Shown in pieces: positions 1-38,927 of a DNA stretch of 64,000 bases. The first letter of the stretch is position 1. Each line of letters starts with the position of its first letter. The translations under genes and the position numbers were made by a program. The stretch is from contig OZ024742.1 in NCBI GenBank assembly GCA_964016885.1, positions 277,388,001 to 277,452,000 of the forward strand, read 5' to 3'. The stretch comes from Eledone cirrhosa. Lineage: Eukaryota. A model generated the notes under the pieces. The model was not told where the DNA came from. It ran no database searches and saw only the letters and a list, made by a program, of their open reading frames with translations.

Positions 1-234
1 AAACGACAACGACGATATCAACATATGAGAAGAATACATTTGGAAAGGTTGATTGGTGGTAAGTATTTCCGTTGGACATGCAAAATTATTGCCGACGTAT
101 AGTGTTGAAATATTGCACAAGTTTACTGATTAATGAAACAATGTTTCGACTAATATTATCATCACTATTTAAATTGTGATAAGGACGCTTACAAATTGTT
201 AGAAGAAGCAAAGAATGGAGTAAAACAATTAGAG

Positions 235-306
235 TTCCCATGCCGGGAATCGAACCCGGGCCGGCTGGGTGAAAGCCAGGAATCCTAACCACTAGACCAC
301 ATTGGA
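235..306 (-). tRNA. tRNA-Glu(TTC), unit 1, variant (acceptor and anticodon-stem mismatches)
   Basis: Reverse complement TCCAATGTGGTCTAGTGGTTAGGATTCCTGGCTTTCACCCAGCCGG...GTTCGATTCCCGGCATGGGAA; A/B boxes intact. Confidence 0.85.
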
Positions 307-487
307 AGCCATTGCTGAAATGAGGAAATATTACACTTTTAAATGTGACAATATATTAATAAACTGTAGAAACTTCTATATATTTATAGAAGCAGGCATA
401 ACATGACAGGCACGGTTTTCATTCATAGATAAATATCACTAGCGATTTCTTCAATACGTTGCTTTACTAAAGGTCACGACCTATACA

Positions 488-559
488 TCCTCGGTAGTAT
501 AGTGGTAAGTATCCCCGCCTGTCACGCGGGAGACCGGGGTTCGATTCCCCGCCGGGGAG
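488..559 (+). tRNA. tRNA-Asp(GTC), unit 1, array consensus
   Basis: TCCTCGGTAGTATAGTGGTAAGTATCCCCGCCTGTCACGCGGGAGACCGGGGTTCGATTCCCCGCCGGGGAG; full cloverleaf; TTTTT terminator ~10 nt downstream. Confidence 0.97.
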
Positions 560-827
560 GTACATATACTTTTTATCTATGAAAGAACAACATTTTAGAT
601 TTTTACACACACACTCTCTCTTAGATGTTCAACATATCTTTCCATAACGATCGGTCAATTGTTAGCACTACACATGGCAACTACCATTTTCATCTGGCAT
701 TCTAGCATATTTAATTCTTTCCATTTTACCGTCGTCCCATCTCTGGCAACTAAACAATCTCTCGTTTCGTTCATCTCAAAAATATTAATTCATGTTTGCA
801 CACACAAAGCTAAACTCAAAGCCTCAG

Positions 828-1215
828 CTCGAGCCAGCGCGGCTGGACCGAGGGGACGCCATGACAATCTTCCCATTCCGTGACGGTAGGCCACACGTCT
901 CTCTTGCTACACGATGTGGCACCTTCTCTAGCGGCAGCATGCTGCGTCCGGCTGCCAGCTTAGTATCCGCTGTTTGCCATGCCGAAGATGGGAAACTGTC
1001 CGAGTATTGGCCGCTTTCTTATATGTTTGTGGTAGAGCGAGTAGCAGTGGAGACTACCAGTGTTCTTGACCCCTAGACAACGGCCCCCGCTCATGGCCAT
1101 CGGAGCTGAGTTGGGTGCGCGAAGTTGCAAGTCTCCCCCAGTTTGATTGGCTCTACCAGCTCGTCTCCGTCACCGTCCTCCCAGGCAATATATTCTTCAT
1201 CCTGTCGGTACGAAG
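828..1215 (+). mobile_element. Degenerate 3' end (RLE endonuclease domain) of a CRE-like non-LTR retrotransposon; present in every array unit (unit 1 coordinates given)
   Basis: Translates LEPARLDRGD..MTIFPFRDGRP..ATRCGTFSSGSM..AASLVSAVCHAEDGKLSEY..FVVERVAVETTSVL, then after a stop/frameshift DWLYQLVSVTVLPGNIFFILS. This matches the CRE-type pattern LEP.GLDRGDG.RPDG.T.FP..GR.L.WDAT..DT...AE..K..KY...FEP.A.ET.G..G...WL.QR.S.A..RGN...IL. Confidence 0.8.
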
Positions 1216-1573
1216 AGGTGCAGGGTATGATAGTTTCCACCTCATATTTCTCTTCTGCTGCCTAGATATTTCTTCCTAGACATATGTTACCGAAAGTTTT
1301 CAGAGTAATCGAAAGCAACAGCTGATTTTTGATTTCATAAAAACGACAACGACGATATCAACATAAGAGAAGAATACATTTGGAAAGGTTGATTGGTGGT
1401 AAGTATTTCCGTTGGACATGCAAAATTATTGCCGACGTATAGTGTTGAAATAATGCACAAGTTTACTGATTAATGAAACAATGTTTCGACTATTACATCA
1501 TCACTATTTAAATTGTGATAAGGACGCTTACAAATTGTTAGAAGAAGCAAAGAATGGATTAAAACAATTAGAG

Positions 1574-1645
1574 TTCCCATGCCGGGAATCGAACCCGGGC
1601 CGCCTGGGTGAAAGCCAGGAATCCTAACCACTAGACCACATGGGA
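1574..1645 (-). tRNA. tRNA-Glu(TTC), unit 2, consensus
   Basis: TCCCATGTGGTCTAGTGGTTAGGATTCCTGGCTTTCACCCAGGCGGCCCGGGTTCGATTCCCGGCATGGGAA on - strand; TTTT terminator downstream. Confidence 0.97.
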
Positions 1646-1826
1646 AGCCATTGCTGAAATGAGGAAATAGTACACTTTTAAATGTGACAATATATTAATA
1701 AACTGTAGAAACTTCTATATATTTATAGAAGCAGGCATAACATGACAGGCACGGTTTTCATTCATAGATAAATATCACTAGCGATTTCTTCAATACGTTG
1801 CTTTACTAAAGGTCACCACCTATACA

Positions 1827-1898
1827 TCCTCGGTAGTATAGTGGTAAGTATCCCCGCCTGTCACGCGGGAGACCGGGGTTCGATTCCCCGCCGGAGAG
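1827..1898 (+). tRNA. tRNA-Asp(GTC), unit 2, acceptor-stem variant
   Basis: 3' end reads CCGGAGAG instead of CCGGGGAG. Confidence 0.88.
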
Positions 1899-2913
1899 GT
1901 ACATATACTTTTTATCTATGAAAGAACAAAATTTTAGATTTTTACACACACACTCTCTCTTAGATGTTCAACATATCTTTCCATAACGATCGGTCAATTG
2001 TTAGCACTACACATGGCAACTACCATTTTCATCTGGCATTCTAGCATATTTAATTCTTTCCATTTTACCGTCGTCCCATCTCTGGCAACTAAACAATCTC
2101 TCGTTTCGTTCATCTCAAAAATATTAATTCATGTTTGCACACACAAAGCTAAACTCAAAGCCTCAGCTCGAGCCAGCGCGGCTGGACCGAGGGGACGCCA
2201 TGACAATCTTCCCATTCCGTGACGGTAGGCCACACGTCTCTCTTGCTACACGATGTGGCACCTTCTCTAGCGGCAGCATGCTGCGTCCAGCTGCCAGCTT
2301 AGTATCCGCTGTTTGCCACGCCGAAGATGGGAAACTGTCCGAGTATTGGCCGCTTTCTTATATGTTTGTGGTAGAGCGAGTAGCAGTGGAGACTACCAGT
2401 GTTCTTGACCCCTAGACAACGGCCCCCGCTCATGGCCATCGGAGCTGAGTTGGGTGAGCGAAGTTGCAAGTCTCCCCCAGTTTGATTGGCTCTACCAGCT
2501 CGTCTCCGTCACCGTCCTCCCAGGCAATATATTCTTCATCCTGTCGGTACGAAGAGGTGCAGGGTATGATAGTTTCCACCTCATATTTCTCTTCTGCTGC
2601 CTAGATATTTCTTCCTAGACATATGTTACCGAAAGATTTCAGAGTAATCGAAAGCAACAGCTGATTTTTGATTTCATAAAAACGACAACGACGATATCAA
2701 CATATGAGAAGAATACATTTGGAAAGGTTGATTGGTGGTAAGTATTTCCGTTGGACATGCAAAATTATTGCCGACGTATAGTGTTGAAATATTGCACAAG
2801 TTTACTGATTAATGAAACAATGTTTCGACTAATATTATCATCACTATTTAAATTGTGATAAGGACGCTTACAAATTGTTAGAAGAAGCAAAGAATGGAGT
2901 AAAACAATTAGAG

Positions 2914-2985
2914 TTCCCATGCCGGGAATCGAACCCGTGCCGGCTGGGTGAAAGCCAGGAATCCTAACCACTAGACCACATTGGA
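2914..2985 (-). tRNA. tRNA-Glu(TTC), unit 3, variant (acceptor, anticodon-stem and T-stem mismatches)
   Basis: Glu-TTC body with three substitutions versus consensus. Confidence 0.8.
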
Positions 2986-3166
2986 AGCCATTGCTGAAAT
3001 GAGGAAATATTACACTTTTAAATGTGACAATATATTAATAAACTGTAGAAACTTCTATATATTTATAGAAGCAGGCATAACATGACAGGCACGGTTTTCA
3101 TTCATAGATAAATATCACTAGCGATTTCTTCAATACGTTGCTTTACTAAAGGTCACCACCTATACA

Positions 3167-3238
3167 TCCTCGGTAGTATAGTGGTAAGTATCCCCGCCTG
3201 TCACGCGGGAGACCGGGGTTCGATTCCCCGCCGGGGAG
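3167..3238 (+). tRNA. tRNA-Asp(GTC), unit 3, consensus
   Basis: Identical to unit 1 Asp. Confidence 0.97.
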
Positions 3239-4252
3239 GTACATATACTTTTTATCTATGAAAGAACAAAATTTTAGATTTTTACACACACACTCTCTCT
3301 TAGATGTTCAACATATCTTTCCATAACGATCGGTCATTTATTAGCACTACACATGGCAACTACCATTTTCATCTGGCATTCTAGCATATTTAATTCTTTC
3401 CATTTTACCGTCGTCCCATCTCTGGCAACTAAACAATCTCTAGTTTCGTTCATCTCAAAAATATTAATTCATGTTTGCACACACAAAGCTAAACTCAAAG
3501 CCTCAGCTCGAGCCAGCGCGGTTGGACCGAGGGGACCGCATGACAATCTCCCCATTCCGTGACGGTAGGCCACACGTCTCTCTTGCTACACGATGTGGCA
3601 CCTTCTCTAGCGGCAGCATGCTGCGTCCGGCTGCCAGCTTAGTATCCGCTGTTTGCCACGCCGAAGATGGCAAACTGTCCGAGTATCGGCCGCTTTCTTA
3701 TATGTTTGTGGTAGAGCGAGTAGCAGTGGAGACTACCAGTGTTCTTGACGCCTAGACAACGGCCCCCGCTCATGGCCATCGGAGCTGAGTTGGGTGCGCG
3801 AAGTTGCAAGTCTCCCCCAGTTTGATTGGCTCTACCAGCTCGTCTCCGTCACCGTCCTCCCAGGCAATATATTCTTCATCCTGTCGGTACGAAGAGGTGC
3901 AGGGTATGATAGTTTCCACCTCATATTTCTCTTCTGCTGCCTAGATATTTCTTCCTAGACATATGTTACCGAAAGTTTTCAGAGTAATCGAAAGCAACAG
4001 CTGATTTTTGATTTCATAAAAACGACAACGACGATATCAACATAAGAGAAGAATACATTTGGAAAGGTTGATTGGTGGTAAGTATTTCCGTTGGACATGC
4101 AAAATTATTGCCGACGTATAGTGTTGAAATATTGCACAAGTTTACTGATTAATGAAACAATGTTTCGACTATTACATCATCACTATTTAAATTGTGATAA
4201 GGACGCTTACAAATTGTTAGAAGAAGCAAAGAATGGAGTAAAACAATTAGAG

Positions 4253-4324
4253 TTCCCATGCCGGGAATCGAACCCGGGCCGCCTGGGTGAAAGCCAGGAA
4301 TCCTAACCACTAGACCACATGGGA
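4253..4324 (-). tRNA. tRNA-Glu(TTC), unit 4, consensus
   Basis: Identical to unit 2 Glu. Confidence 0.97.
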
Positions 4325-4505
4325 AGCCATTGCTGAAATGAGGAAATAGTACACTTTTAAATGTGACAATATATTAATAAACTGTAGACACTTCTATATA
4401 TTTAGAGAAGCAGGCATAACATGACAGGCACGGTTTTCATTCATAGATAAATATCACTAGCGATTTCTTCAATACGTTGCTTTACTAAAGGTCACCATCT
4501 ATACA

Positions 4506-4577
4506 TCCTCGGTAGTATAGTGGTAAGTATCCCCGCCTGTCACGCGGGAGACAGGGGTTCGATTCCCCGCCGGGGAG
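4506..4577 (+). tRNA. tRNA-Asp(GTC), unit 4, T-stem variant
   Basis: GAGACAGGGG instead of GAGACCGGGG. Confidence 0.88.
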
Positions 4578-5588
4578 TACATACACTTTTTATCTATGAA
4601 AGAACAAAATTTTAGATTTTTACACACATTCTCTCTTAGATGTTCAACATATCTTTCCATAACGATCGGTCAATTGTTAGCACTACACATGGCAACTACC
4701 ATTTTCATCTGGCATTCTAGCATATTTAATTCTTTCCATTTTACCGTCGTCCCATCTCTGGCAACTAAACAATCTCTCGTTTCGTTCATCTCAAAAATAT
4801 TAATTCATGTTTGCACACACAAAGCTAAACTCAAAGCCGCAGCTCGAGCCAGCGCGGCTGGACCGAGGGGACCGCATGACAATCTCCCCATTCCGTGACG
4901 GTAGGCCACACGTCTCTCTTGCTACACGATGTGGCACCTTCTCTAGCGGCAGCATGCTGCGTCCGGCTGCCAGCTTAGTATCCGCTGTTTGCCATGCCGA
5001 AGATGGGAAACTGTCCGAGTATTGGCCGCTTTCTTATATGTTTGTGGTAGAGCGAGTAGCAGTGGAGACTACCAGTGTTCTTGACCCCTAGACAACGGCC
5101 CCCGCTCATGGCCATCGGAGCTGAGTTGGGTGCGCGAAGTTGCAAGTCTCCCCCAGTTTGATTGGCTCTACCAGCTCGTCTCCGTCACCGTCCTCCCAGG
5201 CAATATATTCTTCATCCTGTCGGTACGAAGAGGTGCAGGGTATGATAGTTTCCACCTCATATTTCTCTTCTGCTGCCTAGATATTTCTTCCTAGACATAT
5301 GTTACCGAAAGTTTTCAGAGTAATCGAAAGCAACAGCTGATTTTTGATTTCATAAAAACGACAACGACGATATCAACATAAGAGAAGAATACATTTGGAA
5401 AGGTTGATTGGTGGTAAGTATTTCCGTTGGACATGCAAAATTATTGCCGACGTATAGTGTTGAAATAATGCACAAGTTTACTGATTAATGAAACAATGTT
5501 TCGACTATTACATCATCACTATTTAAATTGTGATAAGGACGCTTACAAATTGTTAGAAGAAGCAAAGAATGGATTAAAACAATTAGAG

Positions 5589-5660
5589 TTCCCATGCCGG
5601 GAATCGAACCCGGGCCGCCTGGGTGAAAGCCAGGAATCCTAACCACTAGACCACATGGGA
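5589..5660 (-). tRNA. tRNA-Glu(TTC), unit 5, consensus
   Basis: Identical to consensus. Confidence 0.97.
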
Positions 5661-5841
5661 AGCCATTGCTGAAATGAGGAAATAGTACACTTTTAAATGT
5701 GACAATATATTAATAAACTGTAGAAACTTCTATATATTTATAGAAGCAGGCATAACATGACAGGCACGGTTTTCATTCATAGATAAATATCACTAGCGAT
5801 TTCTTCAATACGTTGCTTTACTAAAGGTCACCACCTATACA

Positions 5842-5913
5842 TCCTCGGTAGTATAGTGGTAAGTATCCCCGCCTGTCACGCGGGAGACCGGGGTTCGATT
5901 CCCCGCCGGGGAG
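5842..5913 (+). tRNA. tRNA-Asp(GTC), unit 5, consensus
   Basis: Identical to consensus. Confidence 0.97.
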
Positions 5914-6927
5914 GTACATATACTTTTTATCTATGAAAGAACAAAATTTTAGATTTTTACACACACACTCTCTCTTAGATGTTCAACATATCTTTCCATA
6001 ACGATCGGTCATTTATTAGCACTACACATGGCAACTACCATTTTCATCTGGCATTCTAGCATATTTAATTCTTTCCATTTTACCGTCGTCCCATCTCTGG
6101 CAACTAAACAATCTCTAGTTTCGTTCATCTCAAAAATATTAATTCATGTTTGCACACACAAAGCTAAACTCAAAGCCTCAGCTCGAGCCAGCGCGGCTGG
6201 ACCGAGGGGACCGCATGACAATCTCCCCATTCCGTGACGGTAGGCCACACGTCTCTCTTGCTACACGATGTGGCACCTTCTCTAGCGGCAGCATGCTGCG
6301 TCCGGCTGCCAGCTTAGTATCCGCTGTTTGCCACGCCGAAGATGGCAAACTGTCCGAGTATCGGCCGCTTTCTTATATGTTTGTGGTAGAGCGAGTAGCA
6401 GTGGAGACTACCAGTGTTCTTGACGCCTAGACAACGGCCCCCGCTCATGGCCATCGGAGCTGAGTTGGGTGCGCGAAGTTGCAAGTCTCCCCCAGTTTGA
6501 TTGGCTCTACCAGCTCGTCTCCGTCACCGTCCTCCCAGGCAATATATTCTTCATCCTGTCGGTACGAAGAGGTGCAGGGTATGATAGTTTCCACCTCATA
6601 TTTCTCTTCTGCTGCCTAGATATTTCTTCCTAGACATATGTTACCGAAAGTTTTCAGAGTAATCGAAAGCAACAGCTGATTTTTGATTTCATAAAAACGA
6701 CAACGACGATATCAACATAAGAGAAGAATACATTTGGAAAGGTTGATTGGTGGTAAGTATTTCCGTTGGACATGCAAAATTATTGCCGACGTATAGTGTT
6801 GAAATATTGCACAAGTTTACTGATTAATGAAACAATGTTTCGACTATTACATCATCACTATTTAAATTGTGATAAGGACGCTTACAAATTGTTAGAAGAA
6901 GCAAAGAATGGAGTAAAACAATTAGAG

Positions 6928-6999
6928 TTCCCATGCCGGGAATCGAACCCGGGCCGCCTGGGTGAAAGCCAGGAATCCTAACCACTAGACCACATGGGA
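6928..6999 (-). tRNA. tRNA-Glu(TTC), unit 6, consensus
   Basis: Identical to consensus. Confidence 0.97.
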
Positions 7000-7180
7000 A
7001 GCCATTGCTGAAATGAGGAAATAGTACACTTTTAAATGTGACAATATATTAATAAACTGTAGACACTTCTATATATTTAGAGAAGCAGGCATAACATGAC
7101 AGGCACGGTTTTCATTCATAGATAAATATCACTAGCGATTTCTTCAATACGTTGCTTTACTAAAGGTCACCATCTATACA

Positions 7181-7252
7181 TCCTCGGTAGTATAGTGGTA
7201 AGTATCCCCGCCTGTCACGCGGGAGACAGGGGTTCGATTCCCCGCCGGGGAG
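7181..7252 (+). tRNA. tRNA-Asp(GTC), unit 6, T-stem variant
   Basis: Same ACAGGGG variant as unit 4. Confidence 0.88.
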
Positions 7253-8263
7253 TACATACACTTTTTATCTATGAAAGAACAAAATTTTAGATTTTTACAC
7301 ACATTCTCTCTTAGATGTTCAACATATCTTTCCATAACGATCGGTCAATTGTTAGCACTACACATGGCAACTACCATTTTCATCTGGCATTCTAGCATAT
7401 TTAATTCTTTCCATTTTACCGTCGTCCCATCTCTGGCAACTAAACAATCTCTCGTTTCGTTCATCTCAAAAATATTAATTCATGTTTGCACACACAAAGC
7501 TAAACTCAAAGCCGCAGCTCGAGCCAGCGCGGCTGGACCGAGGGGACCGCATGACAATCTCCCCATTCCGTGACGGTAGGCCACACGTCTCTCTTGCTAC
7601 ACGATGTGGCACCTTCTCTAGCGGCAGCATGCTGCGTCCGGCTGCCAGCTTAGTATCCGCTGTTTGCCATGCCGAAGATGGGAAACTGTCCGAGTATTGG
7701 CCGCTTTCTTATATGTTTGTGGTAGAGCGAGTAGCAGTGGAGACTACCAGTGTTCTTGACCCCTAGACAACGGCCCCCGCTCATGGCCATCGGAGCTGAG
7801 TTGGGTGCGCGAAGTTGCAAGTCTCCCCCAGTTTGATTGGCTCTACCAGCTCGTCTCCGTCACCGTCCTCCCAGGCAATATATTCTTCATCCTGTCGGTA
7901 CGAAGAGGTGCAGGGTATGATAGTTTCCACCTCATATTTCTCTTCTGCTGCCTAGATATTTCTTCCTAGACATATGTTACCGAAAGTTTTCAGAGTAATC
8001 GAAAGCAACAGCTGATTTTTGATTTCATAAAAACGACAACGACGATATCAACATAAGAGAAGAATACATTTGGAAAGGTTGATTGGTGGTAAGTATTTCC
8101 GTTGGACATGCAAAATTATTGCCGACGTATAGTGTTGAAATAATGCACAAGTTTACTGATTAATGAAACAATGTTTCGACTATTACATCATCACTATTTA
8201 AATTGTGATAAGGACGCTTACAAATTGTTAGAAGAAGCAAAGAATGGATTAAAACAATTAGAG

Positions 8264-8335
8264 TTCCCATGCCGGGAATCGAACCCGGGCCGCCTGGGTG
8301 AAAGCCAGGAATCCTAACCACTAGACCACATGGGA
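8264..8335 (-). tRNA. tRNA-Glu(TTC), unit 7, consensus
   Basis: Identical to consensus. Confidence 0.97.
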
Positions 8336-8516
8336 AGCCATTGCTGAAATGAGGAAATAGTACACTTTTAAATGTGACAATATATTAATAAACTGTAGAA
8401 ACTTCTATATATTTATAGAAGCAGGCATAACATGACAGGCACGGTTTTCATTCATAGATAAATATCACTAGCGATTTCTTCAATACGTTGCTTTACTAAA
8501 GGTCACCACCTATACA

Positions 8517-8588
8517 TCCTCGGTAGTATAGTGGTAAGTATCCCCGCCTGTCACGCGGGAGACCGGGGTTCGATTCCCCGCCGGAGAG
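8517..8588 (+). tRNA. tRNA-Asp(GTC), unit 7, acceptor-stem variant
   Basis: Same CCGGAGAG variant as unit 2. Confidence 0.88.
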
Positions 8589-9603
8589 GTACATATACTT
8601 TTTATCTATGAAAGAACAAAATTTTAGATTTTTACACACACACTCTCTCTTAGATGTTCAACATATCTTTCCATAACGATCGGTCAATTGTTAGCACTAC
8701 ACATGGCAACTACCATTTTCATCTGGCATTCTAGCATATTTAATTCTTTCCATTTTACCGTCGTCCCATCTCTGGCAACTAAACAATCTCTCGTTTCGTT
8801 CATCTCAAAAATATTAATTCATGTTTGCACACACAAAGCTAAACTCAAAGCCTCAGCTCGAGCCAGCGCGGCTGGACCGAGGGGACGCCATGACAATCTT
8901 CCCATTCCGTGACGGTAGGCCACACGTCTCTCTTGCTACACGATGTGGCACCTTCTCTAGCGGCAGCATGCTGCGTCCAGCTGCCAGCTTAGTATCCGCT
9001 GTTTGCCACGCCGAAGATGGGAAACTGTCCGAGTATTGGCCGCTTTCTTATATGTTTGTGGTAGAGCGAGTAGCAGTGGAGACTACCAGTGTTCTTGACC
9101 CCTAGACAACGGCCCCCGCTCATGGCCATCGGAGCTGAGTTGGGTGAGCGAAGTTGCAAGTCTCCCCCAGTTTGATTGGCTCTACCAGCTCGTCTCCGTC
9201 ACCGTCCTCCCAGGCAATATATTCTTCATCCTGTCGGTACGAAGAGGTGCAGGGTATGATAGTTTCCACCTCATATTTCTCTTCTGCTGCCTAGATATTT
9301 CTTCCTAGACATATGTTACCGAAAGATTTCAGAGTAATCGAAAGCAACAGCTGATTTTTGATTTCATAAAAACGACAACGACGATATCAACATATGAGAA
9401 GAATACATTTGGAAAGGTTGATTGGTGGTAAGTATTTCCGTTGGACATGCAAAATTATTGCCGACGTATAGTGTTGAAATATTGCAGAAGTTTACTGATT
9501 AATGAAACAATGTTTCGACTAATATTATCATCACTATTTAAATTGTGATAAGGACGCTTACAAATTGTTAGAAGAAGCAAAGAATGGAGTAAAACAATTA
9601 GAG

Positions 9604-9675
9604 TTCCCATGCCGGGAATCGAACCCGTGCCGGCTGGGTGAAAGCCAGGAATCCTAACCACTAGACCACATTGGA
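9604..9675 (-). tRNA. tRNA-Glu(TTC), unit 8, variant as unit 3
   Basis: Same three substitutions as unit 3. Confidence 0.8.
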
Positions 9676-9856
9676 AGCCATTGCTGAAATGAGGAAATAT
9701 TACACTTTTAAATGTGACAATATATTAATAAACTGTAGAAACTTCTATATATTTATAGAAGCAGGCATAACATGACAGGCACGGTTTTCATTCATAGATA
9801 AATATCACTAGCGATTTCTTCAATACGTTGCTTTACTAAAGGTCACCACCTATACA

Positions 9857-9928
9857 TCCTCGGTAGTATAGTGGTAAGTATCCCCGCCTGTCACGCGGGA
9901 GACCGGGGTTCGATTCCCCGCCGGGGAG
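9857..9928 (+). tRNA. tRNA-Asp(GTC), unit 8, consensus
   Basis: Identical to consensus. Confidence 0.97.
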
Positions 9929-10942
9929 GTACATATACTTTTTATCTATGAAAGAACAAAATTTTAGATTTTTACACACACACTCTCTCTTAGATGTTCA
10001 ACATATCTTTCCATAACGATCGGTCATTTATTAGCACTACACATGGCAACTACCATTTTCATCTGGCATTCTAGCATATTTAATTCTTTCCATTTTACCG
10101 TCGTCCCATCTCTGGCAACTAAACAATCTCTAGTTTCGTTCATCTCAAAAATATTAATTCATGTTTGCACACACAAAGCTAAACTCAAAGCCTCAGCTCG
10201 AGCCAGCGCGGCTGGACCGAGGGGACCGCATGACAATCTCCCCATTCCGTGACGGTAGGCCACACGTCTCTCTTGCTACACGATGTGGCACCTTCTCTAG
10301 CGGCAGCATGCTGCGTCCGGCTGCCAGCTTAGTATCCGCTGTTTGCCACGCCGAAGATGGCAAACTGTCCGAGTATCGGCCGCTTTCTTATATGTTTGTG
10401 GTAGAGCGAGTAGCAGTGGAGACTACCAGTGTTCTTGACGCCTAGACAACGGCCCCCGCTCATGGCCATCGGAGCTGAGTTGGGTGCGCGAAGTTGCAAG
10501 TCTCCCCCAGTTTGATTGGCTCTACCAGCTCGTCTCCGTCACCGTCCTCCCAGGCAATATATTCTTCATCCTGTCGGTACGAAGAGGTGCAGGGTATGAT
10601 AGTTTCCACCTCATATTTCTCTTCTGCTGCCTAGATATTTCTTCCTAGACATATGTTACCGAAAGTTTTCAGAGTAATCGAAAGCAACAGCTGATTTTTG
10701 ATTTCATAAAAACGACAACGACGATATCAACATAAGAGAAGAATACATTTGGAAAGGTTGATTGGTGGTAAGTATTTCCGTTGGACATGCAAAATTATTG
10801 CCGACGTATAGTGTTGAAATATTGCACAAGTTTACTGATTAATGAAACAATGTTTCGACTATTACATCATCACTATTTAAATTGTGATAAGGACGCTTAC
10901 AAATTGTTAGAAGAAGCAAAGAATGGAGTAAAACAATTAGAG

Positions 10943-11014
10943 TTCCCATGCCGGGAATCGAACCCGGGCCGCCTGGGTGAAAGCCAGGAATCCTAACCAC
11001 TAGACCACATGGGA
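10943..11014 (-). tRNA. tRNA-Glu(TTC), unit 9, consensus
   Basis: Identical to consensus. Confidence 0.97.
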
Positions 11015-11195
11015 AGCCATTGCTGAAATGAGGAAATAGTACACTTTTAAATGTGACAATATATTAATAAACAGTAGACACTTCTATATATTTAGAGAAG
11101 CAGGCATAACATGACAGGCACGGTTTTCATTCATAGATAAATATCACTAGCGATTTCTTCAATACGTTGCTTTACTAAAGGTCACCATCTATACA

Positions 11196-11267
11196 TCCTC
11201 GGTAGTATAGTGGTAAGTATCCCCGCCTGTCACGCGGGAGACAGGGGTTCGATTCCCCGCCGGGGAG
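11196..11267 (+). tRNA. tRNA-Asp(GTC), unit 9, T-stem variant
   Basis: ACAGGGG variant. Confidence 0.88.
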
Positions 11268-12278
11268 TACATACACTTTTTATCTATGAAAGAACAAAAT
11301 TTTAGATTTTTACACACATTCTCTCTTAGATGTTCAACATATCTTTCCATAACGATCGGTCAATTGTTAGCACTACACATGGCAACTACCATTTTCATCT
11401 GGCATTCTAGCATATTTAATTCTTTCCATTTTACCGTCGTCCCATCTCTGGCAACTAAACAATCTCTAGTTTCGTTCATCTCAAAAATATTAATTCATGT
11501 TTGCACACACAAAGCTAAACTCAAAGCCTCAGCTCGAGCCAGCGCGGCTGGACCGAGGGGACCGCATGACAATCTCCCCATTCCGTGACGGTAGGCCACA
11601 CGTCTCTCTTGCTACACGATGTGGCACCTTCTCTAGCGGCAGCATGCTGCGTCCGGCTGCCAGCTTAGTATCCGCTGTTTGCCACGCCGAAGATGGCAAA
11701 CTGTCCGAGTATCGGCCGCTTTCTTATATGTTTGTGGTAGAGCGAGTAGCAGTGGAGACTACCAGTGTTCTTGACGCCTAGACAACGGCCCCCGCTCATG
11801 GCCATCGGAGCTGAGTTGGGTGCGCGAAGTTGCAAGTCTCCCCCAGTTTGATTGGCTCTACCAGCTCGTCTCCGTCACCGTCCTCCCAGGCAATATATTC
11901 TTCATCCTGTCGGTACGAAGAGGTGCAGGGTATGATAGTTTCCACCTCATATTTCTCTTCTGCTGCCTAGATATTTCTTCCTAGACATATGTTACCGAAA
12001 GTTTTCAGAGTAATCGAAAGCAACAGCTGATTTTTGATTTCATAAAAACGACAACGACGATATCAACATAAGAGAAGAATACATTTGGAAAGGTTGATTG
12101 GTGGTAAGTATTTCCGTTGGACATGCAAAATTATTGCCGACGTATAGTGTTGAAATATTGCACAAGTTTACTGATTAATGAAACAATGTTTCGACTATTA
12201 CATCATCACTATTTAAATTGTGATAAGGACGCTTACAAATTGTTAGAAGAAGCAAAGAATGGAGTAAAACAATTAGAG

Positions 12279-12350
12279 TTCCCATGCCGGGAATCGAACC
12301 CGGGCCGCCTGGGTGAAAGCCAGGAATCCTAACCACTAGACCACATGGGA
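12279..12350 (-). tRNA. tRNA-Glu(TTC), unit 10, consensus
   Basis: Identical to consensus. Confidence 0.97.
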
Positions 12351-12531
12351 AGCCATTGCTGAAATGAGGAAATAGTACACTTTTAAATGTGACAATATAT
12401 TAATAAACTGTAGACACTTCTATATATTTAGAGAAGCAGGCATAACATGACAGGCACGGTTTTCATTCATAGATAAATATCACTAGCGATTTCTTCAATA
12501 CGTTGCTTTACTAAAGGTCACCATCTATACA

Positions 12532-12603
12532 TCCTCGGTAGTATAGTGGTAAGTATCCCCGCCTGTCACGCGGGAGACAGGGGTTCGATTCCCCGCCGGG
12601 GAG
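12532..12603 (+). tRNA. tRNA-Asp(GTC), unit 10, T-stem variant
   Basis: ACAGGGG variant. Confidence 0.88.
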
Positions 12604-13614
12604 TACATACACTTTTTATCTATGAAAGAACAAAATTTTAGATTTTTACACACATTCTCTCTTAGATGTTCAACATATCTTTCCATAACGATCGGTCAAT
12701 TGTTAGCACTACACATGGCAACTACCATTTTCATCTGGCATTCTAGCATATTTAATTCTTTCCATTTTACCGTCGTCCCATCTCTGGCAACTAAACAATC
12801 TCTCGTTTCGTTCATCTCAAAAATATTAATTCATGTTTGCACACACAAAGCTAAACTCAAAGCCGCAGCTCGAGCCAGCGCGGCTGGACCGAGGGGACCG
12901 CATGACAATCTCCCCATTCCGTGACGGTAGGCCACACGTCTCTCTTGCTACACGATGTGGCACCTTCTCTAGCGGCAGCATGCTGCGTCCGGCTGCCAGC
13001 TTAGTATCCGCTGTTTGCCATGCCGAAGATGGCAAACTGTCCGAGTATCGGCCGCTTTCTTATATGTTTGTGGTAGAGCGAGTAGCAGTGGAGACTACCA
13101 GTGTTCTTGACGCCTAGACAACGGCCCCCGCTCATGGCCATCGGAGCTGAGTTGGGTGCGCGAAGTTGCAAGTCTCCCCCAGTTTGATTGGCTCTACCAG
13201 CTCGTCTCCGTCACCGTCCTCCCAGGCAATATATTCTTCATCCTGTCGGTACGAAGAGGTGCAGGGTATGATAGTTTCCACCTCATATTTCTCTTCTGCT
13301 GCCTAGATATTTCTTCCTAGACATATGTTACCGAAAGTTTTCAGAGTAATCGAAAGCAACAGCTGATTTTTGATTTCATAAAAACGACAACGACGATATC
13401 AACATAAGAGAAGAATACATTTGGAAAGGTTGATTGGTGGTAAGTATTTCCGTTGGACATGCAAAATTATTGCCGACGTATAGTGTTGAAATATTGCACA
13501 AGTTTACTGATTAATGAAACAATGTTTCGACTATTACATCATCACTATTTAAATTGTGATAAGGACGCTTACAAATTGTTAGAAGAAGCAAAGAATGGAG
13601 TAAAACAATTAGAG

Positions 13615-13686
13615 CTCCCATGCCGGGAATCGAACCCGGGCCGCAGGGGTGAAAGCCAGGAATCCTAACCACTAGACCACATGGGA
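13615..13686 (-). tRNA. tRNA-Glu(TTC), unit 11, probably defective
   Basis: Two anticodon-stem substitutions (CCAGG>CCCTG) and discriminator A>G. Confidence 0.7.
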
Positions 13687-13867
13687 AGCCATTGCTGAAA
13701 TGAGGAAATAGTACACTTTTAAATGTGACAATATATTAATAAACTGTAGAAACTTCTATATATTTAGAGAAGCAGGCATAACATGACAGGCACGGTTTTC
13801 ATTCATAGATAAATATCACTAGCGATTTCTTCAATACGTTGCTTTACTAAAGGTCACCATCTATACA

Positions 13868-13939
13868 TCCTCGGTAGTATAGTGGTAACTATCCCCGCCT
13901 GTCACGCGGGAGACCGGGGTTCGATTCCCCGCCGGGGAG
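13868..13939 (+). tRNA. tRNA-Asp(GTC), unit 11, D-arm variant
   Basis: GGTAACTAT instead of GGTAAGTAT. Confidence 0.85.
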
Positions 13940-14951
13940 GTACATACACTTTTTATCTTTGAAAGAACAAAATTTTAGATTTTTACACACATTCTCTCTT
14001 AGATGTTCAACATATCTTTCCATAACGATCGGTCAATTGTTAGCACTACACATGGCAACTACCATTTTCATCTGGCATTCTAGCATATTTAATTCTTTCC
14101 ATTTTACCGTCGTCCCATCTCTGGCAACTAAACAATCTCTCGTTTCGTTCATCTCAAAAATATTAATTCATGTTTGCACACACAAAGCTAAACTCAAAGC
14201 CGCAGCTCGAGCCAGCGCGGCTGGACCGAGGGGACCGCATGACAATCTCCCCATTCCGTGACGGTAGGCCACACGTCTCTCTTGCTACACGATGTGGCAC
14301 CTTCTCTAGCGGCAGCATGCTGCGTCCGGCTGCCAGCTTAGTATCCGCTGTTTGCCAAGCCGAAGATGGCAAACTGTCCGAGTATCGGCCGCTTTCTTAT
14401 ATGTTTGTGGTAGAGCGAGTAGCAGTGGAGACTACCAGTGTTCTTGACGCCTAGACAACGGCCCCCGCTCATGGCCATCGGAGCTGAGTTGGGTGAGCGA
14501 AGTTGCAAGTCTCCCCCAGTTTGATTGGCTCTACCAGCTCGTCTCCGTCACCGTCCTCCCAGGCAATATATTCTTCATCCTGTCGGTACGAAGAGGTGCA
14601 GGGCATGATAGTTTCCACCTCATATTTCTCTTCTGCTGCCTAGATATTTCTTCCTAGACATATGTTACCGAAAGTTTTCAGAGTAATCGAAAGCAACAGT
14701 TGATTTTTGATTTCATAAAAACTACAACGACGATATCAACATAAGAGAAGAATACATTTGGAAAGGTTGATTGGTGGTAAGTATTTCCGTTGGACATGCA
14801 AAATTATTGCCGACGTATAGTGTTGAAATATTGCACAAGTTTTCTGATTAATGAAACAATGTTTCCCTTATGACATCATCACTATTTAAATTATGATAAG
14901 GACGCTTACAAATTGTTAGAAGAAGCAAAGAATGGAGTAAAACAATTAGAG

Positions 14952-15023
14952 TTCCCATGCCGGGAATCGAACCCGGGCCGCCTGGGTGAAAGCCAGGAAT
15001 CCTAACCACTAGACCACATGGGA
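14952..15023 (-). tRNA. tRNA-Glu(TTC), unit 12, consensus
   Basis: Identical to consensus. Confidence 0.97.
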
Positions 15024-15204
15024 AGCCATTGCTGACATGAGGAAATAGTACACTTTTAAATGTGACAATATATTAATAAACTGTAGAAACTTCTATATAT
15101 TTAGAGAAGCAGGCATAACATGACAGGCACGGTTTTCATTCATAGATAAATATCACTAGCGATTTCTTCAATACGTTGCTTTACTAAAGGTCACCACCTA
15201 TACA

Positions 15205-15276
15205 TCCTCGGTAGTATAGTGGTAAGTATCCCCGCCTGTCACGCGGGAGACCGGGGTTCGATTCCCCGCCGGGGAG
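15205..15276 (+). tRNA. tRNA-Asp(GTC), unit 12, consensus
   Basis: Identical to consensus. Confidence 0.97.
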
Positions 15277-16287
15277 TACATACACTTTTTATCTATGAAA
15301 GAACAAAATTTTAGATTTTTACACACATTCTCTCTTAGATGTTCAACATATCTTTCCATAACGATCGGTCAATTGTTAGCACTACACATGGCAACTACCA
15401 TTTTCATCTGGCATTCTAGCATATTTAATTCTTTCCATTTTACCGTCGTCCCATCTCTGGCAACTAAACAATCTCTCGTTTCGTTCATCTCAAAAATATT
15501 AATTCATGTTTGCACACACAAAGCTAAACTCAAAGCCTCAGCTCGAGCCAGCACGGCTGGACCGAGGGGACGCCATGACAATCTTCCCATTCCGTGACGG
15601 TAGGCCACACGTCTCTCTTGCTACACGATGTGGCACCTTCTCTAGCGGCAGCATGCTGCGTCCAGCTGCCAGCTTAATATCCGCTGTTTGCCACGCCGAA
15701 GATGGGAAACTGTCCGAGTATTGGCCGCTTTCTTATATGTTTGTGGTAGAGCGAGTAGCAGTGGAGACTACCAGTGTTCTTGACCCCTAGACAACGGCCC
15801 CCGCTCATGGCCATCGGAGCTGAGTTGGGTGAGCGAAGTTGCAAGTCTCCCCCAGTTTGATTGGCTCTACCAGCTCGTCTCCGTTACCGTCCTCCCAGGC
15901 AATATATTCTTCATCCTGTCGGTACGAAGAGGTGCAGGGTATGATAGTTTCCACCTCATATTTCTCTTCTGCTGCCTAGATATTTCTTCCTAGACATATG
16001 TTACCGAAAGTTTTCAGAGTAATCGAAAGCAACAGCTGATTTTTGATTTCATAAAAACGACAACGACGATATCAACATATGAGAAGAATACATTTGGAAA
16101 GGTTGATTGGTGGTAAGTATTTCCGTTGGACATGCAAAATTATTGCCGACGTATAGTGTTGAAATATTGCACAAGTTTTCTGATTAATGAAACAATGTTT
16201 CGATTATGACATCATCACTATTTAAATAGTGATAAGGACGCTTACAAATTGTTCAAAGAAGCAAAGAATGGAGTAAAGCAATTAGAG

Positions 16288-16359
16288 TTCCCATGCCGGG
16301 AATCGAACAAGGGCCACCTGGGTGAAAGCCAGGAATCCTAACCACTAGACCACATGGGA
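16288..16359 (-). tRNA. tRNA-Glu(TTC), unit 13, probably defective
   Basis: T-stem CCGGG>CCTTG; proximal TTTT terminator mutated to CTTT. Confidence 0.7.
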
Positions 16360-16540
16360 ATCCATTGCTGAAATGAGGAAATAGTACACTTTTAAATGTG
16401 ACAATATATTAATAAACTGTAGACACTTCTATATATTTATAGAAGCAGGCATAACATGACAGGCACGGTTTTCATTCATAGATAAATATCACTAGCGATT
16501 TCTTCAATACGTTGCTCTACTAAAGGTCACCACCTATACA

Positions 16541-16612
16541 TCCTCGGTAGTATAGTGGTAAGTATCCCCGCCTGTCACGCGGGAGACCGGGGTTCGATTC
16601 CCCGCCGGGGAG
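16541..16612 (+). tRNA. tRNA-Asp(GTC), unit 13, consensus
   Basis: Identical to consensus. Confidence 0.97.
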
Positions 16613-17624
16613 GTACATATACTTTTTATCTATGAAAGAACAAAATTTTAGATTTTTACACACATTCTCTCTTAGATGTTCAACATATCTTTCCATAACG
16701 ATCGGTCAATTGTTAGCACTACACATGGCAACTACCATTTTCATCTGGCATTCTAGCATATTTAATTGTTTCCATTTTACCGTCGTCCCATCTCTGGCAA
16801 CTAAACAATCTCTCGTTTCGTTCATCTCAAAAATATTAATTCATGTTTGCACACACAAAGCTAAACTCAAAGCCTCAGCTCGAGCCAGCGCGGCTGGACC
16901 GAGGGGACGCCATGACAATCTTCCCATTCCGTGACGGTAGGCCACACGTCTCTCTTGCTACACGATGTGGCACCTTCTCTAGCGGCAGCATGCTGCGTCC
17001 AGCTGCCAGCTTAGTATCCGCTCTTTGCCACGCCGAAGATGGGAAACTGTCCGAGTATCGGCCGCTTTCTTATATGTTTGTGGTAGAGCGAGTAGCAGTG
17101 GAGACTACCAGTGTTCTTGACGCCTAGACAACGGCCCCCGCTCATGGCCATCGGAGCTGAGTTGGGTGAGCGAAGTTGCAAGTCTCCCCCAGTTTGATTG
17201 GCTCTACCAGCTCGTCTCCGTCACCGTCCTCCCAGGCAATATATTCTTCATCCTGTCGGTACGAAGAGGTGCAGGGTATGATAGTTTCCACCTCATATTT
17301 CTCTTCTGCTGCCTAGATATTTCTTCCTAGACATATGTTACCGAAAGTTTTCAGAGTAATCGAAAGCAACAGCTGATTTTTGATTTCATAAAAACGACAA
17401 CGACGATATCAACATATGAGAAGAATACATTTGGAAAGGTTGATTGGTGGTAAGTATTTCCGTTGGACATGCAAAATTATTGCCGACGTATAGTGTTGAA
17501 ATATTGCACAAGTTTTCTGATTAATGAAACAATGTTTCGATTATGACATCATCACTATTTAAATAGTGATAAGGACGCTTACAAATTGTTCAAAGAAGCA
17601 AAGAATGGAGCAAAGCAATTAGAG

Positions 17625-17696
17625 TTCCCATGCCGGGAATCGAACCCGGTCCACCTGGGTGAAAGCCAGGAATCCTAACCACTAGACCACATGGGA
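17625..17696 (-). tRNA. tRNA-Glu(TTC), unit 14, variable-loop variant
   Basis: GGTGGACCGGG instead of GGCGGCCCGGG; proximal terminator mutated. Confidence 0.82.
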
Positions 17697-17877
17697 ATCC
17701 ATTGCTGAAATGAGGAAATAGTACACTTTTAAATGTGACAATATATTAATAAACTGTAGACACTTCTATATATTTATAGAAGCAGGCATAACATGACAGG
17801 CACGGTTTTCATTCATAGATAAATATCACTAGCGATTTCTTCAATACGTTGCTCTACTAAAGGTCACCACCTATACA

Positions 17878-17949
17878 TCCTCGGTAGTATAGTGGTAAGT
17901 ATCCCCGCCTGTCACGCGGGAGACCGGGGTTCGATTCCCCGCCGGGGAG
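17878..17949 (+). tRNA. tRNA-Asp(GTC), unit 14, consensus
   Basis: Identical to consensus. Confidence 0.97.
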
Positions 17950-18961
17950 GTACATATACTTTTTATCTATGAAAGAACAAAATTTTAGATTTTTACACAC
18001 ATTCTCTCTTAGATGTTCAACATATCTTTCCATAACGATCGGTCAATTGTTAGCACTACACATGGCAACTACCATTTTCATCTGGCATTCTAGCATATTT
18101 AATTCTTTCCATTTTACCGTCGTCCCATCTCTGGCAACTAAACAATCTCTCGTTTCGTTCATCTCAAAAATATTAATTCATGTTTGCACACACAAAGCTA
18201 AACTCAAAGCCTCAGCTCGAGCCAGCGCGGCTGGACCGAGGGGACGCCATGACAATCTTCCCATTCCGTGACGGTAGGCCACACGTCTCTCTTGCTACAC
18301 GATGTGGCACCTTCTCTAGCGGCAGCATGCTGCGTCCAGCTGCCAGCTTAGTATCCGCTCTTTGCCACGCCGAAGATGGGAAACTGTCCGAGTATCGGCC
18401 GCTTTCTTATATGTTTGTGGTAGAGCGAGTAGCAGTGGAGACTACCAGTGTTCTTGACGCCTAGACAACGGCCCCCGCTCATGGCCATCGGAGCTGAGTT
18501 GGGTGCGCGAAGTTGCAAGTCTCCCCCAGTTTGATTGGCTCTACCAGCTCGTCTCCGTCACCGTCCTCCCAGGCAATATATTCTTCATCCTGTCGGTACG
18601 AAGAGGTGCAGGGTATGATAGTTTCCACCTCATATTTCTCTTCTGCTGCCTAGATATTTCTTCCTAGACATATGTTACCGAAAGTTTTCAGAGTAATCGA
18701 AAGCAACAGCTGATTTTTGATTTCATAAAAACGACAACGACGATATCAACATAAGAGAAGAATACATTTGGAAAGGTTGCTTGGTTGTAAGTATTTCCGT
18801 TGGACATGCAAAATTATTACCGACGTATAGTGTTGAAATATTGCACAAGTTTACTGATTAATGAAACAATGTTTCGACTATTACATCATCACTATTTAAA
18901 TTGTGATAAGGACGCTTACAAATTGTTAGAAGAAGCAAAGAATGGAGTAAAACAATTAGAG

Positions 18962-19033
18962 TTCCCATGCCGGGAATCGAACCCGGGCCGCCTGGGTGAA
19001 AGCCAGGAATCCTAACCACTAGACCACATGGGA
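18962..19033 (-). tRNA. tRNA-Glu(TTC), unit 15, consensus
   Basis: Identical to consensus. Confidence 0.97.
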
Positions 19034-19214
19034 AGCCATTGCTGAAATGAGGAAATAGTACACTTTTAAATGTGACAATATATTAATAAACTGTAGAAAC
19101 TTCTATATATTTAGAGAAGCAGGCATAACATGACAGGCACGGTTTTCATTCATAGATAAATATCACTAGCGATTTCTTCAATACGTTGCTTTACTAAAGG
19201 TCACCGCCTATACA

Positions 19215-19286
19215 TCCTCGGTAGTATAGTGGTAAGTATCCCCGCCTGTCACGCGGGAGACCGGGGTTCGATTCCCCGCCGGGGAG
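19215..19286 (+). tRNA. tRNA-Asp(GTC), unit 15, consensus
   Basis: Identical to consensus. Confidence 0.97.
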
Positions 19287-20297
19287 TACATACACTTTTT
19301 ATCTATGAAAGAACAAAATTTTAGATTTTTACACACATTCTCTCTTAGATGTTCAACATATCTTTCCATAACGATCGGTCAATTGTTAGCACTACACATG
19401 GCAACTACCATTTTCATCTGGCATTCTAGCATATTTAATTCTTTCCATTTTACCGTCGTCCCATCTCTGGCAACTAAACAATCTCTCGTTTCGTTCATCT
19501 CAAAAATATTAATTCATGTTTGCACACACAAAGCTAAACTCAAAGCCTCAGCTCGAGCCAGCGCGGCTGGACCGAGGGGACCGCATGACAATCTCCCCAT
19601 TCCGTGACGGTAGGCCACACGTCTCTCTTGCTACACGATGTGGCACCTTCTCTAGCGGCAGCATGCTGCGTCCGGCTGCCAGCTTAGTATCCGCTGTTTG
19701 CCATGCCGAAGATGGCAAACTGTCCGAGTATCGGCCGCTTTCTTATATGTTTGTGGTAGAGCGAGTAGCAGTGGAGACTACCAGTGTTCTTGACGCCTAG
19801 ACAACGGCCCCCGCTCATGGCCATCGGAGCTGAGTTGGGTGAGCGAAGTTGCAAGTCTCCCCCAGTTTGATTGGCTCTACCAGCTCGTCTCCGTCACCGT
19901 CCTCCCAGGCAATATATTCTTCATCCTGTCGGTACGAAGAGGTGCAGGGTATGATAGTTTCCACCTCATATTTCTCTTCTGCTGCCTAGATATTTCTTCC
20001 TAGACATATATTACCGAAAGTTTTCAGAGTAATCGAAAGCAACAGCTGATTTTTGATTTCATAAAAACGACAACGACGATATCAACATAAGAGAAGAATA
20101 CATTTGGAAAGGTTGATTGGTGGTAAGTATTTCCGTTGGACATGCAAAATTATTGCCGACGTATAGTGTTGAAATATTGCACAAGTTTACTGATTAATGA
20201 AACAATGTTTCGACTATTACATCATCACTATTTAAATTGTGATAAGGACGCTTACAAATTGTTCAAAGAAGCAAAGAATGGAGTAAAGCAATTAGAG

Positions 20298-20369
20298 TTC
20301 CCATGCCGGGAATCGAACAAGGGCCACCTGGGTGAAAGCCAGGAATCCTAACCACTAGACCACATGGGA
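20298..20369 (-). tRNA. tRNA-Glu(TTC), unit 16, probably defective (as unit 13)
   Basis: T-stem CCTTG and mutated terminator. Confidence 0.7.
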
Positions 20370-20550
20370 ATCCATTGCTGAAATGAGGAAATAGTACACT
20401 TTTAAATGTGACAATATATTAATAAACTGTAGACACTTCTATATATTTATAGAAGCAGGCATAACATGACAGGCACGGTTTTCATTCATAGATAAATATC
20501 ACTAGCGATTTCTTCAATACGTTGCTCTACTAAAGGTCACCACCTATACA

Positions 20551-20622
20551 TCCTCGGTAGTATAGTGGTAAGTATCCCCGCCTGTCACGCGGGAGACCGG
20601 GGTTCGATTCCCCGCCGGGGAG
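20551..20622 (+). tRNA. tRNA-Asp(GTC), unit 16, consensus
   Basis: Identical to consensus. Confidence 0.97.
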
Positions 20623-21633
20623 TACATACACTTTTTATCTATGAAAGAACAAAATTTTAGATTTTTACACACATTCTCTCTTAGATGTTCAACATATCTT
20701 TCCATAACGATCGGTCAATTGTTAGCACTACACATGGCAACTACCATTTTCATCTGGCATTCTAGCATATTTAATTCTTTCCATTTTACCGTCGTCCCAT
20801 CTCTGGCAACTAAACAATCTCTAGTTTCGTTCATCTCAAAAATATTAATTCATGTTTGCACACACAAAGCTAAACTCAAAGCCTCAGCTCGAGCCAGCGC
20901 GGCTGGACCGAGGGGACCGCATGACAATCTCCCCATTCCGTGACGGTAGGCCACACGTCTCTCTTGCTACACGATGTGGCACCTTCTCTAGCGGCAGCAT
21001 GCTGCGTCCGGCTGCCAGCTTAGTATCCGCTCTTTGCCACGCCGAAGATGGGAAACTGTCCGAGTATCGGCCGCTTTCTTATATGTTTGTGGTAGAGCGA
21101 GTAGCAGTGGAGACTACCAGTGTTCTTGACGCCTAGACAACGGCCCCCGCTCATGGCCATCGGAGCTGAGTTGGGTGCGCGAAGTTGCAAGTCTCCCCCA
21201 GTTTGATTGGCTCTACCAGCTCGTCTCCGTCACCGTCCTCCCAGGCAATATATTCTTCATCCTGTCGGTACGAAGAGGTGCAGGGTATGATAGTTTCCAC
21301 CTCATATTTCTCTTCTGCTGCCTAGATATTTCTTCCTAGACATATGTTACCGAAAGTTTTCAGAGTAATCGAAAGCAACAGCTGATTTTTGATTTCATAA
21401 AAACGACAACGACGATATCAACATAAGAGAAGAATACATTTGGAAAGGTTGGTTGGTGGTAAGTATTTCCGTTGGACATGCAAAATTATTGCCGACGTAT
21501 AGTGTTGAAATATTGCACAAGTTTACTGATTAATGAAACAATGTTTCGACTATTACATCATCACTATTTAAATTGTGATAAGGACGCTTACAAATTGTTA
21601 GAAGAAGCAAAGAATGTAGTAAAACAATTAGAG

Positions 21634-21705
21634 TTCCCATGCCGGGAATCGAACCCGGGCCGCCTGGGTGAAAGCCAGGAATCCTAACCACTAGACCACA
21701 TGGGA
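21634..21705 (-). tRNA. tRNA-Glu(TTC), unit 17, consensus
   Basis: Identical to consensus. Confidence 0.97.
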
Positions 21706-21886
21706 AGCCATTGCTGAAATGAGGAAATAGTACACTTTTAAATGTGACAATATATTAATAAACTGTAGAAACTTCTATATATTTAGAGAAGCAGGCATAA
21801 CATGACAGGCACGGTTTTCATTCATAGATAAATATCACTAGCGATTTCTTCAATACGTTGCTTTACTAAAGGTCACCACCTATACA

Positions 21887-21958
21887 TCCTCGGTAGTATA
21901 GTGGTAAGTATCCCCGCCTGTCACGCGGGAGACCGGGGTTCGATTCCCCGCCGGGGAG
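21887..21958 (+). tRNA. tRNA-Asp(GTC), unit 17, consensus
   Basis: Identical to consensus. Confidence 0.97.
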
Positions 21959-22970: not shown

Positions 22971-23042
22971 TTCCCATGCCGGGAATCGAATCCGGGCCGC
23001 CTGGGTGAAAGCCAGGAATCCTAACCACTAGACCACAAGGGA
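22971..23042 (-). tRNA. tRNA-Glu(TTC), unit 18, B-box and acceptor variant
   Basis: GGATTCGA instead of GGGTTCGA; 5' end TCCCTTG. Confidence 0.72.
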
Positions 23043-23223
23043 AGCCATTTCTGAAATGAGGAAATAGTACACTTTTAAATGTGACAATATATTAATAAAC
23101 TGTAGAAACTTCTATATATTTATAGAAGCAGGCATAACATGACAGGCACGGTTTTCATTCATAGATAAATATCACTAGCGATTTCTTCAATACGTTGCTT
23201 TACTAAAGGTCACCACCTATACA

Positions 23224-38896: not shown

Positions 38897-38927
38897 AAAT
38901 AATAATAATAACAATAATAATAATAAT
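38897..38927. repeat. (AAT)n microsatellite at the 3' end of Tx1 element A
   Basis: Direct reading. Confidence 0.95.

Follow-up and report, generated by a model that had tools for sequence, protein, structure and literature searches.

A decayed retrotransposon endonuclease fragment carried in every complete unit of a tRNA-Glu/tRNA-Asp tandem array

The tandem array and its repeat unit

The window, the whole 64-kb stretch of DNA analysed here, corresponds to G000:C3:277,388,001-277,452,000 of a 3.0-Gb genome. The right end of a tandem array with a unit period of ~1,337 bp (1.34 kb) fills its first 32 kb. The whole array spans ~183 kb and is composed of 136 full and 2 partial units, each built around a tRNA-Glu and a tRNA-Asp gene (Table 1). 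Gene calls within the array comprise 135 tRNA-Asp, 134 tRNA-Glu(TTC) and 2 tRNA-Glu(CTC), together with one aberrant call. Most exact-match tRNA-Asp(GTC) and tRNA-Glu(TTC) genes of the genome reside here, with 95 of 100 and 93 of 100, respectively, among the matches listed. The tRNA-Glu gene is the most variable region across the 136 units (diversity 0.037), including the two CTC anticodons and one TTA call.

Downstream of tRNA-Asp, every unit carries a fragment with homology to the restriction-like endonuclease (RLE) of non-LTR retrotransposons. It measures 406 bp, which is 30% of the unit, and starts 269 bp past tRNA-Asp on the same strand. An initial annotation, made from the letters alone, had placed such a piece ~270 bp downstream of tRNA-Asp in the same orientation, had estimated that roughly 30% of the unit is retroelement-derived and had assigned the piece to every tRNA unit. 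These three descriptions are borne out, the last by all 136 complete units, which keep all fragment columns. The right-edge unit and three inverted relics within the window also carry the fragment. Its boundaries were set by an empty paralogous unit (L062, described below) and by dispersed parent copies; they agree with the start first proposed, 828, and move the end from 1215 to 1233.

Table 1. Positions of the array, its unit and the copies of the fragment (window coordinates unless a locus is named)
Feature	Position	Strand	Remarks
Tandem array, right-hand part	1..32186	+	whole array ~G000:C3:277,236,990-277,420,186
tRNA-Glu(TTC) of unit	234..306	-	divergent from tRNA-Asp
tRNA-Asp(GTC) of unit	488..559	+	
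Left junction	824..827	+	TCAG; the empty site and two older inverted units have TTAG; final 2 nt (AG) also in parent element
Decayed RLE-coding fragment of a non-LTR retrotransposon	828..1233	+	one copy per unit, both ends truncated
15-bp deletion site	854..855	+	catalytic R-P-D motif removed in main array
Stretch between two +1 frameshifts relative to parent frame	1082..1136 (approximate)	+	
Position of parent's stop codon	1226..1228	+	TAA in 23/136 units, TAT in 106/136
Right junction	1230..1235	+	TTAGTT in parent element and empty target, a 6-nt microhomology
Fragment in diverged last unit	31576..31953	+	last unit 87% to main unit
Fragment in old inverted unit	36571..36921	-	junctions as main array, PD motif kept
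Fragment in second old inverted unit	37770..38183	-	junctions as main array, PD motif kept
Partial fragment in third inverted relic	38509..38782	-	
tRNA-Asp copies with array-like trailer	L059, L060, L061, L063, L108, L114, L115, L117, L118, L119		

An inverted-repeat element of ~1.1 kb (window 32186-33313), with 34-bp internal repeats in both arms, lies at the right edge of the array. Beyond this edge, window 35849-38782 holds old diverged units with inversions, 74-92% identical to the main unit. Microsatellite richness, a C2H2 zinc-finger array and named relatives from Octopus sinensis may point to an octopus-like animal. A GC-rich stretch that follows an AAT repeat (window 38900-40000) resembles, by eye only, the 3' portion of a further, minus-strand LINE. 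The minus strand also contains a 426-aa open frame of C2H2 zinc fingers (window 57000-58700) and degraded CRE-like relics of other families at 62215-62562 and about 51910-52023. Elsewhere on the same chromosome lies an orphan 700-bp copy of the filled spacer (L146, G000:C3:36,145,371-36,146,066), which is 87% identical to the unit, lacks tRNA genes and has the PD motif intact.

Identity of the fragment and its parent family

Homology identifies the fragment as a broken C-terminal RLE piece of a non-LTR retrotransposon. In tblastn searches it matched a 456-aa dispersed copy (E 2.9e-18) and three outside RT proteins (E 1.2e-13, 6.7e-10 and 1.2e-7). A profile built from 80 outside proteins scored the main frame at 48.7 bits, against a best score of 8.0 bits among 500 shuffles and less than 0 for the reversed fragment. 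The last frame alone reached just 3.8 bits against the same profile. Pfam returned 0 families for both fragment frames, and a protein search with the 84-aa piece directly gave 0 of 223 candidates at E≤0.001. The RLE non-LTR identity first proposed is upheld by the profile and tblastn scores, while several details of the initial annotation required revision. The recurrent 94-aa ORF corresponds to frame 789-1076, which has 95 aa between its stops and 94 when counted from ATG; the homology crosses three frames via two frameshifts, not this frame and one following frame. The cited protein motifs were slightly idealised, and the window has TIFPFRDGRP and ETTSVLD. The term 3' end is inexact, since the piece stops 5 nt past the old stop codon of the parent and has no 3' UTR or tail. 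In most of the 30 dispersed copies compared, the 3' UTR extends for at least ~30 nt.

The fragment retains neither an intact frame nor the catalytic residues: the R-P-D motif is deleted, the conserved WD is lost, two frameshifts are present and the knuckle is absent. The R-P-D motif is present in two inverted relics and the orphan copy and is missing throughout the main array. The same 15-bp deletion is found again in dispersed copies, L020 among them. The 94-aa frame repeated along the array does not represent a gene, and the array inflates repeat counts for the parent family.

The parent family is dispersed in the genome. A search with one dispersed copy returned 40,677 first-look candidates, of which 150, on many contigs, were scored; the dispersed copies sampled here were the few top scorers among tens of thousands, not a random draw. 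The 3' motif of the source subfamily has 133 matches. The parent ORF is single and ~900-1000 aa long, with an RT and C-terminal CCHC, RH, E and R/KPD motifs (67 of 80 relatives). In the long copies L065, L066 and L074, RT motifs stand ahead of the RLE, placing the RT upstream in the parent. Most of the best outside relatives of at least 799 aa carry PF00078, and Pfam matched RT pieces from the genome itself weakly, with one frame of six at E 0.081. The CCHC knuckle with the PD-(D/E)xK endonuclease motif was found in L031 and in 67 of 80 relatives. One long copy has an N-terminal finger, which we take to be PHD-like; PF00628 was found on 3 of 68 relatives. A young subfamily is represented by four long copies that are 92-95% identical to each other. 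The array piece derives from an older subfamily, with 66-78% identity over matched stretches. Copies of this source subfamily are 100-455 nt long in 22 of the 23 that could be measured, and short pieces are therefore typical of it.

The endonuclease of a dispersed relative is predicted to fold like that of R2. The model of the L031 endonuclease domain has a pLDDT of 92.6, and all seven Foldseek matches at E≤0.001 are R2. VIA-align superposed the model on R2 with Z-scores of 14.8 (rmsd 3.1, 190 aligned) and 13.6, with the next unrelated entry at 7.9. Sequence searches of solved structures found nothing with L031 alone and, with an alignment, at best a weak match to R2Bm (E 0.067). The clade label CRE is plausible for the parent family, which we assume to be CRE-like from its motifs. 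The motif spacing fits the REL pattern of SLACS and CRE1/2; RH is followed by A, not D/N, and the pattern is common to other RLE clades. None of the database matches to the family carries the name CRE.

A 22-bp minisatellite of at least 40 kb (G000:C3:346,450,001-346,490,000, L178-L181) matches the part of the old subfamily that spans the stop codon and 3' UTR, and is likely a satellite born from the old-subfamily element. This locus at C3:346.46 Mb was ruled out as a second tandem array, as it is a 22-bp minisatellite without tRNA.

Origin, spread and decay of the array copies

A paralogous unit at C3:117.80 Mb (L062) is empty at precisely the insertion site. It has the same Glu/Asp layout, spacers 72-84% identical to the main unit and no RLE match, and it is continuous across the junction. 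It is the sole paralogous Glu/Asp unit among 22 tRNA-Asp genes examined outside the array, and the one empty unit that the search suggested in the initial annotation yielded. L062 reads GCTTAG followed directly by TTTCC, and the filled units read (C/T)AG, 406 bp, TTTCC. The spacer of the empty unit also contains a TA-flanked element with terminal inverted repeats (L062:4578-5469), presumably Tigger/pogo-like and unrelated to the RLE piece. The spacers of the filled inverted unit are closer to the main unit (82-95%) than those of L062, which suggests that L062 split off before the insertion. Were the filled unit ancestral instead, a deletion running exactly from one TAG repeat to the other would have emptied the paralog. 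TAG does stand on either side of the insert and the empty paralog is a single case, but L062 is the most diverged unit and precise loss is less parsimonious than insertion, making this order of events very unlikely. The fragment would remain a passenger even if L062 had lost it by deletion.

The junctions suggest how the piece may have entered the spacer. Both ends of the insert lie at microhomologies, since the parent element has CAG where the left cut falls and TTAGTT where the right one does. The flanking TAG copies may represent a duplication of 3-4 bp or microhomology supplied by the element. Target-primed reverse transcription could have made the insertion, with priming within the element RNA at the 6-nt TTAGTT match and early termination at the 2-nt match. 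Repair-templated capture would fit the insert ends equally well, and the data do not separate the two routes.

The array copies descend from a common source. In a tree with 23 dispersed copies, all eight array-derived pieces fall on one side of a branch with 100/100 support. These eight are three main-array units, the last unit, the three inverted relics (window 36.4-38.8 kb) and the orphan at C3:36.145 Mb; L042, whose anchor was not found, and L022 are not part of the tree. Two inverted relics and the orphan share their junctions with the main array. It is highly probable that the fragment landed once in the ancestral Glu/Asp spacer and then multiplied to ~137 copies by tandem amplification. 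The single clade, the common junctions and the empty paralog favour the proposal in the initial annotation of one truncated insertion in a founder unit. Amplification and homogenisation of the filled unit would have proceeded by unequal exchange or gene conversion, in the inferred order of empty unit, insertion, inverted relics, orphan copy, 15-bp deletion and present array. Counting against a single passenger insertion, the path from the subfamily radiation is longer for the array lineage (~0.30) than for its dispersed sisters (0.11-0.22), which were chosen for similarity and are biased accordingly.

The filled state also appears under other organism labels. Contigs from runs labelled organism B and organism C run gap-free across the deletion site and the 5' junction, with 99% identity (6 differences in 510) and 94% identity (9 in 147), respectively. 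The comparison covered 4 of 24 listed runs, with organism labels as given, and its contigs show presence only. Among the contigs listed for the four runs, none spanned the 3' junction and none had the empty site joined, an absence that is not evidential there; coverage of the unit by runs X6 and X7 was partial and bridged no junction.

Since insertion, the fragment has diverged without a codon signal, as indicated by a third-position share of 0.20-0.33 in six array-derived pairs against 0.55-0.57 between subfamilies. Its diversity within the array is 0.027, compared with 0.017-0.028 for the other spacers. Between main and inverted units it is the most diverged of five regions (80% identity, other spacers 82-95%), and older units have lost parts of it. 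Judged by these comparisons, the fragment is free of coding constraint and likely a neutral passenger. The units thus combine a common remnant and common junctions with neutral divergence, and an empty state exists. CpG is better kept in the array, with observed/expected ratios of 0.83-1.02 (8 rows) against 0.35-0.84 in dispersed copies (23 rows); this retention and the long array branch count against pure neutrality. Co-option, with selection for its spread, could for instance have made the fragment a CpG-rich spacer or insulator, or a small-RNA source directed at the family. Among the RNA runs listed, none contained more than 0.05 of the words of the unit. The retained CpG, the full retention in 136 of 136 units and the presence of the fragment under at least two other organism labels would be in keeping with such a role. 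Homogenisation alone suffices for that retention, however, and the fragment diverges as fast as the other spacers or faster and has been lost in part from older units. We regard co-option as highly improbable.

R2 is 28S-specific, and the elements of the CRE group are specific for spliced-leader genes or telomeres. The other proposal of the initial annotation was a CRE lineage targeting tRNA arrays, considered here as a sequence-specific lineage that would target the tRNA-Asp/Glu spacer as R2 targets 28S rDNA. RLE elements often target repeats, and the accessible text of PMC4640811 describes some that target tRNA genes. Against such a lineage, the array pieces form one clade with one junction pair, and the 136 units contain no full-length or differently truncated copy. 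Relatives lie on many chromosomes, and the dispersed copies have unrelated 3' flanks and ragged 3' ends. Mapping of the 3' ends of 37 young copies was blurred by microsatellites; its usable result is likewise ragged ends with no shared flank. BLAST for tRNA-Asp/Glu found no match in 84 family loci (438 kb, 81 distinct places), so that none of these relatives has the junction in a tRNA-Asp/Glu spacer that had been anticipated. Default ARAGORN detected no tRNA around family copies in sets of 13, 30, 12 and 30 loci. Relaxed ARAGORN made 13 calls in the 84 loci, which were not counted; several lie inside the element and none is tRNA-Asp/Glu by BLAST. There were no independent fixed-site insertions, and the sampled copies are not mostly in or beside the target repeat. 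The existence of one empty unit dates the single insertion rather than showing repeated targeting. A targeting lineage is largely refuted by these results and extremely unlikely.

A looser association was also considered, in which CRE-like elements lack a target sequence and instead favour open chromatin around Pol III genes, with the array insertion as one product. Within 1.5 kb of dispersed tRNA genes we counted 11 CRE-like pieces, partly of a second family, in 127 kb of flanks, compared with 4 in 158 kb of background, a ~threefold excess (p 0.024) that weakens to p 0.066 once two likely double counts are removed. The background is small, hand-picked and non-random, the loci overlap, and distances and orientations are mixed. 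Three of 22 dispersed tRNA-Asp genes (L109, L110 and L111; C7, 22.4-23.8 Mb) are followed at 264, 540 and 446 bp, respectively, by the end of the second CRE-like family, antisense in each case, but all three are on one chromosome and may share ancestry. None of 29 other copies of this family has a tRNA within 1.5 kb, a comparison of low power because tRNA genes are far rarer than the element. We consider this preference unlikely; if real, it would be a position preference not described for the CRE-like group. The second family itself was discarded as a tRNA-Asp-associated family, being otherwise dispersed (23,226 candidates). A dense tRNA-Thr cluster with a tRNA-Ile (G000:C1:243.65-243.68 Mb; L213, L215) has no CRE-like piece in its 3-kb loci.

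About ten dispersed tRNA-Asp copies have an array-like 3' trailer, in most cases followed directly by a common SINE-like repeat. They are likely retrocopies or chimeras of array pre-tRNA; if so, the array or its ancestor would have been transcribed in the germ line.

Relation to known systems

A single dead insertion would have grown to ~56 kb in total as the tRNA array carried it along, which makes it a clean case study rather than a new mechanism. The empty paralog, the inverted relics, the orphan copy and the 15-bp deletion provide ordered markers with which to date the array and gauge turnover in related species. In the literature searched, mostly papers open without subscription, we found neither an account of the array nor a CRE lineage reported from tRNA arrays.

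A passenger retroelement remnant in a tRNA array is an already known kind of process, because human 1q23.3 tRNA repeats hold LINE and LTR fragments in every unit. As described in the available text of Darrow and Chadwick 2014 (PMC4041453), the human tRNA VNTR consists of tandem units ~98% identical that include tRNA-Glu and tRNA-Asp, each with an LTR fragment (5.7%) and a partial LINE (7.37%), and the mouse tRNA unit has a partial LTR and a SINE. The present array is likewise made of tandem tRNA units that each hold a retroelement remnant. It differs from the human repeat in its 1.34-kb unit with two tRNAs, its ~137 copies and its RLE-derived remnant of 30%, and in having junctions fixed by an empty paralog.

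Among RLE elements, the CRE group comprises CRE1/2, SLACS, MoTeR and FoTeR, with a REL pattern given in the accessible part of PMC12857005. CRE-type LINEs are reported in cephalopods (PMC10294476, in its available text), and the available text of PMC8967140 makes no mention of CRE. The parent family resembles the CRE group, as described there, in its RT and C-terminal CCHC, RH, E and R/KPD motifs; unlike that site-specific group, it is dispersed and has ragged 3' ends. The predicted endonuclease fold is like that of R2 (PDB 9dou, 8gh6, 8ibw), with which it has only 15-17% identity, and R2 inserts repeatedly whereas the piece in the array stems from one insertion, now dead. Families of RLE elements with tRNA genes as targets include NeSL-1_TV (tRNA-Pro), LIN15_SM (tRNA-Arg) and LIN25_SM (tRNA-Glu), according to the accessible text of PMC4640811. 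Like these families, the array combines RLE sequence with tRNA genes; in contrast to their tRNA-gene specificity, here 269 bp separate the gene from the piece, whose family lacks such specificity. Transposon remnants in rDNA intergenic spacers have been inferred from short direct repeats, in the available text of bioRxiv 10.1101/2023.02.20.529178. Here too, the spacers of an RNA-gene array are partly transposon debris, but unlike in that work, the remnant is protein-coding in origin and its source family is identified.
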